The notes under the pieces were generated by a model, which saw only the letters and a list, made by a program, of their open reading frames with translations, was not told the origin of the DNA and made no database searches. 49,212 nt of DNA from assembly GCA_028748975.1 (NCBI GenBank), contig JAQTPI010000002.1, forward strand, positions 1 to 49,212. The letters are read 5' to 3'. This DNA is from Patescibacteria group bacterium. Its GTDB lineage: Bacteria; Patescibacteriota; Patescibacteriia; UBA2196. This document shows positions 1,150 to 38,831 of this stretch, in pieces. Within the stretch, counting starts at the first letter, position 1, and every line of letters begins with the position of its first letter. A program made the position numbers and the translations under genes.

Positions 1150-3335
1150 TATTCAAAAACCCAGATCTTTCCGTTATTGATTTCGAAATATACTTTGGCA
1201 CTTTGTTTGGCGGCTGGAATAAGTTTTTTAAAATTGGTCCAATAATCGGCGAAGATGACAAAAACCGTGTCAACGCCGGTTATTTTTTTTGCCTCACTGA
1301 TAAATTCCGGCTTAATGCCCTGATAGGTAATATTTAAATAAATTTTGTATAGTGGGGAAGAGGTTGGTAGGGGATAATAAAAAGTTCCATTATAATATTT
1401 TTTAAAACCAAACTCTTGCAGGGCAGCGGCGGCGGTGGACTGGTTGGCCAGGACAAGATAGTTTTTATTAGCACTAAGGCCCTCAACAAGGCGCACGGCA
1501 GTCAAGTCATCAGCGGAGACGGCAAAACCTTTGTTTTTGATGATAGTATCGTAGCGCGGATAGACCAAGTATAAAATGGAAACAGCACAAAAAGCAGCGC
1601 CAATTAAAAGGAGAATAACTCCTTTTTTTGTTTTGATGGCGATTTCAAAAATGTAGGCCAGAGCGATTAAAACAAAAGGCAAAATGAAAAAATAGGCGGA
1701 GTGAACCAGGCGCAGGGGAAAAATATTTTGCTCGTAATTGATGACGGATTGAAAAGTAAAAAGTTTGAGTGCCAAAGCATTTATAAGTAGAATTAAAGAG
1801 GCGAGGATAAAAAATGATTTTGATGTTTTTTTGAACTTATAAAAACCAAAGATGGAAAGAATAATAACAAGCGGATAAAAAATTATTTTTAAAAGATAAA
1901 GTGAATGTAAAAAAGAATCAAAAGGAAGATAGAAAACGCTGTTTTTGGCAGAGATTAGAAGTTCGCGCAGATTTTGCCAATGGAAAGAAAGTTGAAAATT
2001 TGGGAGGATTAAGGAGGCGAGAAAAAAAGCGAGCGGAACGGCAACGATTGATAAAATTAATAGGATTAATAAAACTAATTTATTTTTTTGACGCAAGGAT
2101 AAAAAAAGACAAAAAGTTAGAGCGGAAATTCCGGCGAGAGGATGAATGAAGGTGATGGCCAGAGCGAGGAACCAGAGAAAGGGAGTGATTTTTTTATTGT
2201 CATTCCGAGGGAGCGAAGCGACCGAGGGAATCTCGGACGAGATCCCATCACCCCTCTCCGCCAACTGGCGGATCGGGGTTCGGGATGACATCCACGCAAA
2301 AGCAAAAAATACAAAACAGATAAGAAAAATATTTGCCAGATGCTGTGGAGTGGTGAAGAAGAAAGAAAAAAGAGTTAAGAGACCAGCGAAGACAGCGGAA
2401 AATTGGGCGGCGGATTTGGAAAAGTTATTTTTGACAAGGGTGAAGTAGGCGAGAGTCGGAATTAGAATTGAACCGAGTGCGGGAGCCAAAATTTTATCAA
2501 AAAAAGAAAAATTGATGGCAAAAAGTTTAGAAAAAATTATCACCAGAGAATATTGTCCGATGTAATAGGGGGTTTTGGGGAGCACGACACCTTCCAGAGA
2601 AATTATTTTTTCGGCGGCGCGGTGGACAAAGGGATCAAAGCCATAGCCGATTTTATAAACCACAAGCGCCACGGCGCTGGAAAGCAAAATGTATAAAAAA
2701 ATTAAGGGACCGTTTTTATTTTCTGGATGCTTGATAATTTTGTAGAAAAGAACTAATGATAACAAAAAATAGACAACGAAAAAATAGGAGGGAATGACTT
2801 GCCAAGGACTGACGATGACGGAAGTGGAGCGGTGGAATATAAGTATTAAAAGCAATAGAAGCAATAAAAGTACTATAAGTAATGATGATAGTGAAAATTT
2901 TGGAAAGTGTATTTTTTGTTGATTGTTAATTGTTAATTGCTTACTGTTTATTAGAATCGTTGGTAAAAGCAAAATTATGGCGATGTTCCAATCATGAAGG
3001 CCGATGAGGTAATAAAAAATTGAGCCGGTGATTATTAAATAGGTGCAAAGAAAGAGAAAGCCGAGGATTGGTTTAAAATAATCGTCATCCCGAGCGAAGC
3101 CCGCTTCGACCGCGAAGCGAGGCGAGCGATGGGATCTTTCGGATAAAGATTCCATCAGTCGTTCCGAATTTTCGGAACTCCTTCGGAATGACAATAAACC
3201 GCCAGTTTTAAAGGAAAAATAAAAAAGATAGGCAAGTCCAATGGGGACGCCAAGAAGCGGGCTTTTGAGCCATAAAACATTAATTACTGCGAGTATGGCT
3301 ACAAGAAATGATAATAAATGCTTGACAAATTTCAT
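1146..3335 (-). CDS. Large multi-pass membrane protein (possible GT-C-type glycosyltransferase) with two in-frame palindromic-element insertions
   Basis: 760-aa ORF; start moved to ATG at 3335 (MKFVKHLL); many hydrophobic segments and a GYGFDPFVH luminal motif; function inferred. Confidence 0.75.
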   Translation of the reverse strand: MKFVKHLLSFLVAILAVINVLWLKSPLLGVPIGLAYLFYFSFKTGGLLSFRRSSENSERLMESLSERSHRSPRFAVEAGFARDDDYFKPILGFLFLCTYLIITGSIFYYLIGLHDWNIAIILLLPTILINSKQLTINNQQKIHFPKFSLSSLLIVLLLLLLLLILIFHRSTSVIVSPWQVIPSYFFVVYFLLSLVLFYKIIKHPENKNGPLIFLYILLSSAVALVVYKIGYGFDPFVHRAAEKIISLEGVVLPKTPYYIGQYSLVIIFSKLFAINFSFFDKILAPALGSILIPTLAYFTLVKNNFSKSAAQFSAVFAGLLTLFSFFFTTPQHLANIFLICFVFFAFAWMSSRTPIRQLAERGDGISSEIPSVASLPRNDNKKITPFLWFLALAITFIHPLAGISALTFCLFLSLRQKNKLVLLILLILSIVAVPLAFFLASLILPNFQLSFHWQNLRELLISAKNSVFYLPFDSFLHSLYLLKIIFYPLVIILSIFGFYKFKKTSKSFFILASLILLINALALKLFTFQSVINYEQNIFPLRLVHSAYFFILPFVLIALAYIFEIAIKTKKGVILLLIGAAFCAVSILYLVYPRYDTIIKNKGFAVSADDLTAVRLVEGLSANKNYLVLANQSTAAAALQEFGFKKYYNGTFYYPLPTSSPLYKIYLNITYQGIKPEFISEAKKITGVDTVFVIFADYWTNFKKLIPAAKQSAKVYFEINNGKIWVFEY
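2198..2290. repeat. GTCAT...ATGAC element, 93 bp, in frame in the 1146-3335 CDS
   Basis: TGTCATTCCG...CGGGATGACA; translates as MSSRTPIRQLAERGDGISSEIPSVASLPRND. Confidence 0.9.
3083..3193. repeat. GTCAT...ATGAC element, 111 bp, in frame, with a nested 27-bp core (3100-3126)
   Basis: GTCATCCCGAG...CGGAATGAC. Confidence 0.9.
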
Positions 3336-6648: not shown

Positions 6649-7362
6649 ATGAAAGTTAAAAAAATAAGTTTATACAAAAGATTGGATAAAAGAATAATTG
6701 GAGAATATTCTAGATTTAAGTTTGGGGACGAGAAAATGATTATAAAATATTCAAAAATGTTGGCAACTGTTATAAAAAAACAATTGAAAGATGGCAAAAA
6801 GTATATTATTTATACAACAAGTCAATCACCTTTAAACAAATATGTCAGACAAAGTTCTTTTGTTATGTCAGAGCGGGTTGCTAAATATTTAAACCTAAAA
6901 TTGATTGTTGGGCAATATAAATATTCATATAATAAGGAAACTTTTTATGATAATTCTGATGATTGGGAGCGGGATAATAGAAATATTCATAGACCACATC
7001 TAAATGGTAAAAAACAATTGCGCGGGGGTTATGATGTTTTGATGATAGATGATTCAATTGTGAGCGGAAGATCGCTGAAAGCTTCTGTTGATGAGCTGAA
7101 AAAAATCACAAAAAATGTAATGTTTTTTTCAATAATTAATTTAAAAAACAAGAGATATACCGAAGAAGAAGTGAATAATTTTTATTTTAAGAAAAAGGGA
7201 ATTATTTTTTTAAAAAGAATTCTTGAATCAAAGCATGCTTTTACAACTCAATTTATAAGAATTTTCGAAGAATTGGATTTGTATGAAAAGAAAATATTAT
7301 TAAAATCAATAAATAAAAACATAGCCGCCCAACTCAACAAAGCAATAAATATTTATGTCTAA
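6649..7362 (+). CDS. Type I phosphoribosyltransferase-like protein (AT-rich gene)
   Basis: VLMIDDSIVSGRSL matches the PRPP-binding motif of type I PRTases. Confidence 0.68.
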   Translation: MKVKKISLYKRLDKRIIGEYSRFKFGDEKMIIKYSKMLATVIKKQLKDGKKYIIYTTSQSPLNKYVRQSSFVMSERVAKYLNLKLIVGQYKYSYNKETFYDNSDDWERDNRNIHRPHLNGKKQLRGGYDVLMIDDSIVSGRSLKASVDELKKITKNVMFFSIINLKNKRYTEEEVNNFYFKKKGIIFLKRILESKHAFTTQFIRIFEELDLYEKKILLKSINKNIAAQLNKAINIYV

Positions 7363-7567
7363 ATTTATAAATAAAATTTTTATTGGTGGTTTGATTTTTT
7401 TTCTGGTATTTTTTGCTTTGGAGTTGGTGAAAGAAGGGTTTGTGTCAAATTATTTTGATTTAAATATAGTTTTATTAATTGTGGTTATTTTTGGTATAAT
7501 GAGTTTAATATTAAAAAGGTGTCATCCTGAGGACCCCGAGTACTCGGGGGACGAAGGATCTCACTAG
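7355..7567 (+). CDS. Small two-TM membrane protein; C-terminus derived from a palindromic element
   Basis: Overlaps the upstream stop; two hydrophobic helices; last ~15 aa (CHPEDPEYSGDEGSH) read from the element starting at 7520. Confidence 0.62.
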   Translation: MSKFINKIFIGGLIFFLVFFALELVKEGFVSNYFDLNIVLLIVVIFGIMSLILKRCHPEDPEYSGDEGSH

Positions 7568-7687
7568 TTGTCATCCCAGCGAAAGCTGGGATCCAGAAAA
7601 AACAACGACGTGGATTCCGGGTCAAGCCCGGAATGACAAACAGCTACGAGATTCCTCGGCCGATGCGTTATCGGCCTCGGAATGACA
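7520..7687. repeat. Nested GTCAT elements (inner dRS3-like element at 7569-7638)
   Basis: Two complete sets of TGTCAT...ATGACA termini, one inside the other. Confidence 0.9.
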
Positions 7688-7699
7688 ACCGCATAGTTT

Positions 7700-8113
7700 A
7701 TGGACAATTGTTTATTTTGCAAAATCATTGCCGGGGAAATTCCGGCCGAAAAGGTCTATGAAGATGAAAAAGTGCTGGCGATTTTGGATATTAAGCCGGT
7801 GAATCCCGGTGATGTTTTGATTATTACTAAAGAACACGCTGAAGATATGCTCGGCGCGAGCAAGGAAAACATTGAAGCAGCTATAATGGCGGCGCAAAAG
7901 ATGGGGCTGATTTTAAAGAAAGCACTTGGCGCTGGCGGAGTTAATATTCGCATTAATAATGGGGAGTTGGCCGAACAAATGATTAAACATGCCCATATTC
8001 ACGTTATTCCGCGTTTTGAAAACGATGGAAGAGTTGATTGGGTTGGGAAAGAATACGGCCCAGGCGAATTTGAAGCGATGGGAGAGAAAATACGGCAAGC
8101 ATTTAAGGAATAG
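7700..8113 (+). CDS. HIT family hydrolase
   Basis: CLFCKIIAGEIP start and HAHIHVIPR histidine triad. Confidence 0.93.
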   Translation: MDNCLFCKIIAGEIPAEKVYEDEKVLAILDIKPVNPGDVLIITKEHAEDMLGASKENIEAAIMAAQKMGLILKKALGAGGVNIRINNGELAEQMIKHAHIHVIPRFENDGRVDWVGKEYGPGEFEAMGEKIRQAFKE

Positions 8114-20842: not shown

Positions 20843-20871
20843 TGTCATCCCGGGCTTGACCCGGGATCCAG
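20843..20871. repeat. dRS3-like half element
   Basis: TGTCATCCCGGGCTTGACCCGGGATCCAG, matches the reverse complement of the right arm of the inner element at 7569-7638. Confidence 0.8.
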
Positions 20872-32453: not shown

Positions 32454-32614
32454 TGTCATTCCGACCGAAGCCAGAACGATAGAGAGGGCGGAGTGCCCGC
32501 CCGAACGACTGACGTTGTTCAGTCGGGCGGGGAGGAATCCCTTATATTTCCCATATGAGATAGGCGAAGGGATCCCTTGGCTCTAAGCGACCCTAAAGGC
32601 CGTTCGGGATGACA
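32454..32614. repeat. GTCAT...ATGAC element carrying a nested 36-bp hairpin (32496-32531)
   Basis: TGTCATTCCG...CGGGATGACA termini; CCCGCCCGA...TCGGGCGGG inside the left arm. Confidence 0.88.
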
Positions 32615-38625: not shown

Positions 38626-38831
38626 TGTCATTCTGATCCGCCCTAGGCGGAGAAGAATCTCGTAATTTTATAGAACAGATATATAGAACAGATATAGGGA
38701 TATAAAGACATAAAGAAATACATAAACAAAGCCTTTTATATCCTTATTTCCTTATATCTTTATTATTTACCTTTTCAGTCACGAGATCCTTCACTTCGTC
38801 CCGAATACCCGGGACTTCGTTCAGGATGACA
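38626..38831. repeat. GTCAT...ATGAC element with an AT-rich 9-mer array in its spacer
   Basis: TGTCATTCTGA...GAATCT left arm; AGATCCTTCA...TCAGGATGACA right arm. Confidence 0.8.

Follow-up and report, generated by a model that had tools for sequence, protein, structure and literature searches.

The window (the whole stretch of DNA that was analyzed, 49,212 nucleotides, C2:1-49212) is part of a Patescibacteria genome of 904 kb with 41% GC, which comprises 23 contigs and is 98.9% complete. Within it, the 3' end of a gene for a small membrane protein runs into a palindromic element (7520-7687) that is delimited, as read directly from the sequence, by TGTCAT (7520-7525) and ATGACA (7682-7687). 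This outer element holds a complete second element of 70 bp (7569-7638) with the same ends (TGTCAT at 7569-7574, ATGACA at 7633-7638), positioned exactly in its center. An earlier sequence-only reading of the window had proposed this arrangement, and its coordinates are exact when the flanking T and A are counted. Together, the two elements form a composite of four hairpin units in the order > > < <. The features of the locus are the following:

7355-7567, + strand: small membrane ORF (70 aa), whose C-terminal 16 residues (RCHPEDPEYSGDEGSH) come from the outer left arm
7520-7562, + strand: outer left arm, a type C unit resembling an Ssn-related motif (SRM) (TGTCATCCTGAGGACCCCGAGTACTCGGGGGACGAAGGATCTC; tag T-GTC, palindrome AT...AT, then C-TC)
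7563-7568, + strand: left linker of the composite (ACTAGT), the short junction, which holds the TAG stop codon (7565-7567) of the small membrane ORF
7569-7596, + strand: inner left unit, NTS/dRS3-like (TGTCATCCCAGCGAAAGCTGGGATCCAG; 8-bp stem, GAAA loop, CCA tail)
7597-7609, no strand assigned: spacer of the inner dimer, 13 nt (AAAAAACAACGAC)
7610-7638, - strand: inner right unit (minus-strand reading TGTCATTCCGGGCTTGACCCGGAATCCAC)
7639-7647, + strand: right linker of the long junction type (AACAGCTAC; reverse complement CTCGTAG-CTG-TT), a type common to most composites
7648-7687, - strand: outer right arm, a type C unit (minus-strand reading TGTCATTCCGAGGCCGATAACGCATCGGCCGAGGAATCTC; internal hairpin GGCCGAT-N5-ATCGGCC)
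7700-8113, + strand: HIT-family gene, starting 13 nt past the composite, given as context only

The outer left arm carries an internal hairpin as well (CCCCGAG-TA-CTCGGGG). It is 98% identical to the arm C10:23463:R and 90% identical to an arm of the empty element C2:110231, and the outer right arm shares 95% identity with an arm of the empty element C11:24311 and with C12:118:L. Folded as single-stranded DNA, a 178-nt stretch adopts concentric hairpins (-41.4 kcal/mol, z = -5.5 vs. shuffles). The arrangement exceeds chance, as GGAATGAC occurs in the window in nine copies (1.2 expected) and GGGATGAC in eight (0.7 expected), which makes the tag octamers about ten-fold over-represented. Orthologues of the membrane ORF in two relatives (G018 and G007) end without the tail that the outer arm provides; no element at all is present in the orthologous interval of the former or at the gene end of the latter. 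Both junctions between the outer and the inner element were found in independent Logan contigs of run SRR22315508, so that the nesting is not an artifact of this one assembly. The Logan contigs end inside the inner spacer (the end of L030 and the start of L029 correspond to window positions 7596 and 7613, respectively), which could be due to a repeat-induced graph break or to variation in an A-run.

All four units share one layout, i.e., a T-GTC tag, an AT...AT palindrome and a C directly 3' of it. The GTC directly 5' and the C directly 3' of the palindrome (4/4 units) are invariant across the repeat families A-D, and T precedes GTCAT at position -1 in 97-98% of the units scored genome-wide (flank logos). 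The CGTC/TGTC-tagged REP superfamily, to which the Neisseria dRS3 repeat belongs, is characterized by a stem of 8-9 bp that starts from AT, a loop of 4-5 nt and a CCA tail (PMC3733652). Both inner units fall within this stem, loop and tail definition, the left one as ATCCCAGC-GAAA-GCTGGGAT-CCA and the right one as ATTCCGGG-CTTGA-CCCGGAAT-CCA. The outer arms are a variant in which the tag and the AT...AT base are kept, but the stems are extended, internal hairpins are present and the tail is CTCG. The earlier suggestion that the inner left arm keeps the geometry of dRS3 holds, as its ATCCCA-N8-TGGGAT compares with ATTCCC-N8-GGGAAT in dRS3/NTS. In 2025, repeats of the dRS3 class received a new definition as NTS or Ssn-related motifs (SRM), single-stranded DNA hairpins that are bound by small GIY-YIG nucleases named Ssn and cleaved by them at a distance of a few nucleotides on the 5' side of the tag (PMC11893778). 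For SsnA, the three nucleotides before the palindrome are critical for cleavage and the C after it is critical for binding (Chenal et al. 2025, PMC11893778). The published SRM expression (HGTCWYN(0-2)YYVSBRHN(0-5)WNVSBRGN(0-2)RNCYNB) retrieves 41 sites in the genome, where simulated genomes give 0-3, and one of the 41 is the inner left unit (7569-7596), an exact match. Owing to deviating loop and stem lengths, the literal expression misses the inner right unit as well as the two outer arms. The assignment of the locus to nested hairpin dimers of the Ssn type, within the dRS3/NTS class, is considered secure. The sequence-only reading had recognized the likeness to dRS3, while it missed both the membership in the Ssn-related motif class and the copy of the outer family that carries an ssn gene (see below). 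Two other assignments were considered and rejected. A hammerhead-like interpretation of CCUGAGGA...CGAAGG in the outer arm fails as other copies have CCGAGG, a stem I is absent and no Rfam ribozyme matches, and an integron attC site lacks both the GTTRRRY core and a cassette context. A scan of the window against Rfam 15 gave nothing at or above the gathering threshold; the only weak hit, to the Francisella sRNA model FtrB, which contains a dRS3-like hairpin, scored 20 bits vs. a threshold of 66.

Around 190 tagged hairpin units occur in the genome, which form around 90 pairs with the tags outward and belong to several families. Type A, to which the inner element belongs, is an NTS-like dimer of 63-69 bp that combines a few hairpin modules in mixed pairs; nearly all of its copies (19 strict, about 24 in total) have different left and right modules. 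Type C, represented here by the outer element, has arms of the form GTCATYCYGA...GRGRATCTCG that are joined at a small palindrome (ATCTCGTACGAGAT) and often contain an extra internal hairpin. Arms like those of type C also enclose other palindromes, an ssn gene, or a cargo of about 110 bp, an inverted repeat of GATATAAGG-type 9-mers that is observed in either orientation (38627-38830, C7:39231, C20:175, C1:87051, C5:21914, and further C3:30832, C9:17741, C5:31789 and C6:41096). Small palindromes (CCGCC..GGCGG, CCCGA..TCGGG and CCGAT..ATCGG) are about nine-fold enriched in the arms, where they sit at the hairpin tips and constitute a third level of nesting. These small GC-rich palindromes each have around 57-60 copies genome-wide and are present inside type A units too. 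A variant arm family, in which GTAGTTT replaces the GTC tag (GTAGTTTATCCCGAGCG...GAGGGATCTCGT), was also observed; it has around ten copies in the genome, mostly single arms. The window contains the following members of these families:

2199-2289, no strand assigned: un-nested dimer of the same superfamily (center GGAATCTCGGACGAGATCCC)
7534-7549, 7660-7678 and 32496-32531: examples of small GC-rich palindromes
15849 (- strand), 20722 (+ strand) and 33900 (+ strand): GTAGTTT-tagged arms
20844-20871, + strand: single type A unit, a half copy (GTCATCCCGGGCTTGACCCGGGATCCAG)
38627-38830, no strand assigned: element with the same arm type and another cargo (GTCAT...AATCTCGT / ACGAGATCC...ATGAC around a GATATAAGG-type 9-mer array)

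The half copy had been described before and is present as such, and so are the further nestings that the sequence-only reading had pointed out in the window (3084-3192, 32455-32613 and 38627-38830). Identical arms of 38-45 nt occur with different partners or cargo (C12:118:R = C2:110231:L = C1:121982:L, and C7:753:L = C9:6586:R), which makes the exchange of modules evident and indicates that the single arm, and not the whole dimer, behaves as the unit of copying or conversion.

The composite in the window is not unique. Seven full composites of a type A dimer in a type C dimer are found in the genome (C2:7555 in the window, C1:12016, C7:753, C7:12867, C7:21870, C12:118 and C16:1415), and in all seven the inner dimer sits at the same central point of the outer one. 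Three more type A dimers and one type A half-unit adjoin a single arm at a similar junction; two of these arms, each with an attached type A dimer, are GTAGTTT-tagged (C7:~16910 and C9:~120). The side-by-side order ><>< was never seen in the genome, in contrast to >><< in the seven composites. Under a random model in which 24 type A dimers are placed in the DNA outside long ORFs with 21 type C elements as targets, the binomial probability that at least seven of the 24 fall anywhere within a type C element is 2e-9 or lower, and the chance of landing in the 22-nt type C centers is 1e-13. The frequency of nesting, with seven cases at one fixed position, is thus far above that of random insertion, a comparison that had been proposed as a check. 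The accompanying claim that the elements target one another is upheld for type A inside type C (seven times), but a type C element inside a type A dimer was not found anywhere in the genome. The targeting is one-directional, and the claim is therefore overstated.

Paralogues of both partners allow the composites to be compared with their parts. Empty type C elements comprise nine copies with the tight center CTCGTACGAG (one mismatch allowed) and five with a long center of 9-11 nt. Brought into one orientation, the composites have the form ATCTCGTAG-YNG-TTT-[GTCAT..ATGAC]-A-W-ACG-ACGAGAT; taking out the inner unit leaves a center of ATCTCGTAG..ACGAGAT, like that of the five long-center empty copies. 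In the closest pair of a filled and an empty element (C7:21870 and C9:16034, respectively), an arm is 96% identical too. More generally, the arms of filled elements share 85-100% (mostly 93-100%) identity with the nearest arm elsewhere, which mostly belongs to an empty element or to one with another cargo. The un-nested copies of the outer family that had been anticipated do exist as paralogues, for instance C11:24281-24361, in which the right arm shares 95% identity with the outer right arm of the window composite. Similarly, the inner sequence occurs independently, as had been expected from its half copy. The inner dimer of the window is nearest to the stand-alone copy C8:18021-18083 (87% identity, with both hairpin modules the same) and shares 90% identity with a stand-alone dimer from another genus (G003:C2:100342-100412). 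The boundaries of the inner unit are sharp. Two inner copies (C7:12883 and C12:136) share 96% identity exactly from TGTCAT to ATGACA, whereas they have unrelated linkers and outer arms and lie in opposite orientation relative to the CTCGTAG junction. Their identity ends right at T-GTCAT and not around 4 nt outside GTCAT, the boundary that would be expected from an upstream cut by Ssn; the breakpoints can be placed only to within about 3 nt. In favor of such an outer boundary, G is present at position -4 in 62% of the flanks of type C elements. Most composites have conserved and asymmetric linkers, CTCGTAG-YNG-TTT on the long side and A-W-ACG on the short one; both linkers are absent from the stand-alone type A copies and from the tight empty type C copies. 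These linkers suggest either that a special long-center subfamily of type C served as the target or that the composites had a shared ancestor that was later remodeled by module exchange.

Two small GIY-YIG genes are encoded in the genome (C4:54779-55090 and C4:31025-31336). The first encodes a protein of 103 aa (PF01541, E = 8e-14) and is located between a left and a right type C arm; within C4:54723-55205, these arms with their ssn-like gene are followed by a 36-bp mini element. The region C2:109519-109660 equals this element minus the gene, which is deleted between two direct repeats of GGGATCTCG. Judging from this correspondence, the ssn-carrying type C element and C2:109519-109660 are a putative parent and its miniature in one genome. 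The second gene is flanked by degenerate related arms. Homologues of ssn are present in 41 out of 61 relatives. The homologue in G003 (65% identity) is flanked by C/D-type arms, and the homologue in G013 lies between type A units with their tags outward, one of which has the CCCAGCGAAAGCTGGG module of the inner left unit. As ssn is thus found within type C arms here and within type A units in G013, both the inner and the outer level of the nest are gene-less miniatures of SRM-ssn-SRM cassettes. Type A units border neither of the two ssn-like genes of this genome, as both have C/D-type arms; type A would consequently need to be mobilized in trans or be a relict. Comparison of the ssn-like protein with NCBIfam and the PDB yielded no specific family and no PDB relative.

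Conventional transposases were considered as well. The Y1_Tnp profile (PF01797) found nothing in the 98.9%-complete genome, with matches in 32 of the 61 relatives and in control genomes. These matches among the relatives (G001-G060) are RAYT/IS200-like, and many are ORFs of 200-230 aa. Profiles for IS110, TnpB, rve and DDE_Tnp_1 likewise gave no match in the genome, and RAYT/IS200, IS110, TnpB, rve and DDE_Tnp_1 were rejected as mobilizing enzymes for their absence. The inner and the outer element have inverted termini, but no direct repeat flanks either of them and a related DDE transposase is missing from the genome, which places them outside the classical definition of a MITE. As the junction sequences fit no simple duplication, neither a duplicated target site nor a TA target at the tight center CTCG-TA-CGAG was retained as an explanation.

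Several known systems resemble the composite in part. The closest is the NTS/SRM repeat with SsnA (Chenal et al. 2025, Nat Commun 16:2388, PMC11893778), which has the same (C/T)GTC tag, the AT-initiated palindrome followed by C and, in common with type A, the CYRG/CCAG tail. In both cases, single-domain GIY-YIG genes of around 100 aa have tags-outward units on both sides, and many gene-less copies exist. Such a gene with the motif on either side is found in this genome (on C4), in G013 (type A units) and in G003 (C/D arms). In the published system, the protein is a member of the CDD family cd10448 and cleaves single-stranded DNA only, beside its motif. Unlike the published motifs, the type C arms have extra internal hairpins and no match to the SRM expression, and the paper describes no SRM dimer family nested at a fixed point of another. 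The host differs as well, being a Patescibacteria genome of 0.9 Mb in which the nuclease is predicted from sequence. The CGTC-tagged REPs (Di Nocera, De Gregorio & Rocco 2013, BMC Genomics 14:522, PMC3733652) share the tag, stem, loop and tail, and are mostly dimers, with frequent heterodimers. Their superfamily includes Neisseria dRS3 and Rickettsia RPE-4/6 and has no dedicated transposase (PMC3733652). REP dimers within longer palindromes have already been reported for H. neapolitanus CGTC-1, A. variabilis GTAG-15 and T. roseum GTAG-23 (PMC3733652). Empty versions of the target palindrome were not found in H. neapolitanus or A. variabilis, whereas many empty copies exist here. Moreover, the enclosing palindrome is here itself a tagged REP/SRM dimer family with one copy that carries ssn, and the inner unit also occurs alone. 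REPINs and BIMEs, which are associated with RAYT (Bertels & Rainey 2011, PMC3116915; Ton-Hoang et al. 2012, PMC3333891), have in common that inverted hairpin doublets act as non-autonomous units, that heterodimers and mosaic clusters with linker motifs occur, and that the hairpins are presumably recognized as single strands. They differ in their tag (GTAG instead of GTC), in the Y1 transposase and in the alternation of BIMEs as opposed to the order > > < <. Insertion sequences that target REPs (IS1397, ISKpn1, and IS110/IS1111 members such as ISPpu9; Tobes & Pareja 2006, PMC1525189; PMC12288879) are also placed site-specifically inside a resident palindromic repeat. They are, however, protein-coding and use DDE or DEDD transposases, while the insert is here a 70-bp hairpin dimer and the genome encodes no such transposase. 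Finally, in the NIMEs of Neisseria, as they are cited in PMC3733652 and PMC11893778, hairpins of the dRS3 class bracket short repeats in intergenic mosaics; those are presented there as linear arrays of RS units between dRS3 copies, in contrast to complete dimers that are concentric at a fixed center. The repeat class, its nuclease partner and REP dimers within palindromes are thus already known. New are the concentric nesting of two SRM families at a fixed position, the coexisting empty sites and the ssn-bearing parent, in a genome free of transposases.

The composite junction and the tight type C center appear only in this genome among 101 relatives. A scan of all GTDB species for the tight center retrieved mostly single chance palindromes. 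Real type C dimers were observed in an unrelated, GC-rich MAG of the Gammaproteobacteria (JANNKD01; L145:4978-5043 and L147:2161-2227) with the framework TGTCATYCCGAG...GGRATCTCGTACGAGATCCC...GGGATGACA, and such dimers are present in 0 out of 100 Patescibacteria relatives. The distribution of these sequences points to a lateral acquisition of type C, which would then have expanded within this lineage. At the locus itself, the only other assembly that contains it (from one run, SRR22315508, identified by an exact-protein look-up) has the nested form. In metagenome contigs, the best homologue of the flanking HIT gene is only 59% identical. Empty sites are accordingly known as paralogues and not as alleles of the 7520-7687 locus.

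We consider it fairly probable that the nesting arose by insertion of the inner Ssn-type miniature dimer, with a preference for this site, into the center of the outer dimer. From the paralogues and the published properties of SsnA, we infer the direction of insertion and the following order of events. The outer dimer, itself a miniature of the ssn-enclosing type C element, would first have landed at the 3' end of the small membrane-protein gene and replaced its C-terminus. A discrete TGTCAT...ATGACA unit would then have been copied, without target duplication, into the short central palindrome or loop of the outer element (ATCTCGT...ACGAGAT), and like insertions would have been repeated in other type C copies. 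In this scheme, the elements would act as single-stranded DNA hairpins: a nuclease of the Ssn type may bind the hairpin and nick it immediately on the 5' side of the GTC tag, the copy may be made by the replication or repair machinery of the host, and the unpaired center of a folded resident element may be the favored single-stranded acceptor. The involvement of the ssn-like nuclease is suggested by the linkage of its gene to the repeats together with published enzymology. Two properties of these enzymes argue against mobility through Ssn, as GIY-YIG nucleases only cut and do not ligate, and a tags-outward dimer is cut by SsnA at just one outer boundary per strand. The C/D-type arms, in place of type A units, around both ssn-like genes of this genome count against it as well. 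The conserved linkers in most composites argue against insertion as such, since they could mean common descent.

A more far-reaching proposition, which we put forward tentatively as a possibility, is that SRM dimers and SRM-ssn-SRM cassettes might constitute a true class of transposable elements. They would rely on a GIY-YIG nickase of around 100 aa for single-stranded DNA and on host replication or repair, would produce no target duplication and would prefer the unpaired apex of folded SRM elements. If true, this would explain the three levels of organization, with small palindromes placed in the loops of arms, type A dimers in the centers of type C, and genes or arrays between the arms. The order > > < < would also allow two same-strand cuts by Ssn to free single arms as hairpin oligonucleotides, and the freed arms could convert other copies, resulting in identical arms with many partners.

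Alternatively, the mosaic of four units may have arisen once and been amplified as a whole, as a BIME-type cluster with fixed linkers, after which gene conversion or module exchange diversified its arms and modules. In favor of it, most composites have junction linkers that are conserved and asymmetric, the arms are exchanged as modules, with identical arms next to different partners, and this genome alone among 101 relatives has the composite. This origin nevertheless seems rather unlikely to us. The pair of inner copies with 96% identity resides in unrelated arms and linkers, in opposite orientation, and the identity stops at TGTCAT and ATGACA. Furthermore, the nearest relatives of inner dimers often stand alone, and the empty long-center paralogues look like composites from which the inner unit is missing.

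It is also conceivable, though improbable, that the nesting is functional and kept by selection, either because four Ssn hairpins (two per strand), stacked between two genes, strongly mark the DNA for single-strand restriction or because the structured RNA or DNA is a signal that acts on the neighboring genes. In N. meningitidis, NTS repeats that flank genes lower the integration of transforming DNA through SsnA. The strong predicted structure (z = -5.5), the distance of 13 nt to the HIT start codon and the supply of a stop codon to the upstream ORF would be in line with such a role. Against it, a scan found no terminator-like site within the composite, Rfam gave no match at threshold, and the orthologous intervals of relatives do without the element. 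The composites neighbor genes that are unrelated, and the genome contains empty and filled versions as well as ones with another cargo, as selfish insertions would give. A functional role would be compatible with a mobile origin. Chance juxtaposition or an assembly artifact can practically be dismissed: despite the metagenome-type assembly in 23 contigs and the Logan contigs that break inside the inner element, both junctions are reproduced in independent Logan contigs, and seven composites have the same architecture (P <= 2e-9 under random placement).

The locus is relevant to the question of how CGTC-tagged REPs (dRS3/NTS and RPE-type repeats) spread, for which Ssn nucleases have only recently been proposed as partners. 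The genome offers a natural test set, comprising a 70-bp unit that is defined to the base, a defined acceptor (the type C center), filled and empty paralogues, and an ssn-carrying parent with its deletion derivative, in the absence of any conventional transposase. At the same time, the locus illustrates how repeats remodel genes in ultra-small genomes, as the outer element gives a membrane protein its C-terminus and its stop codon.
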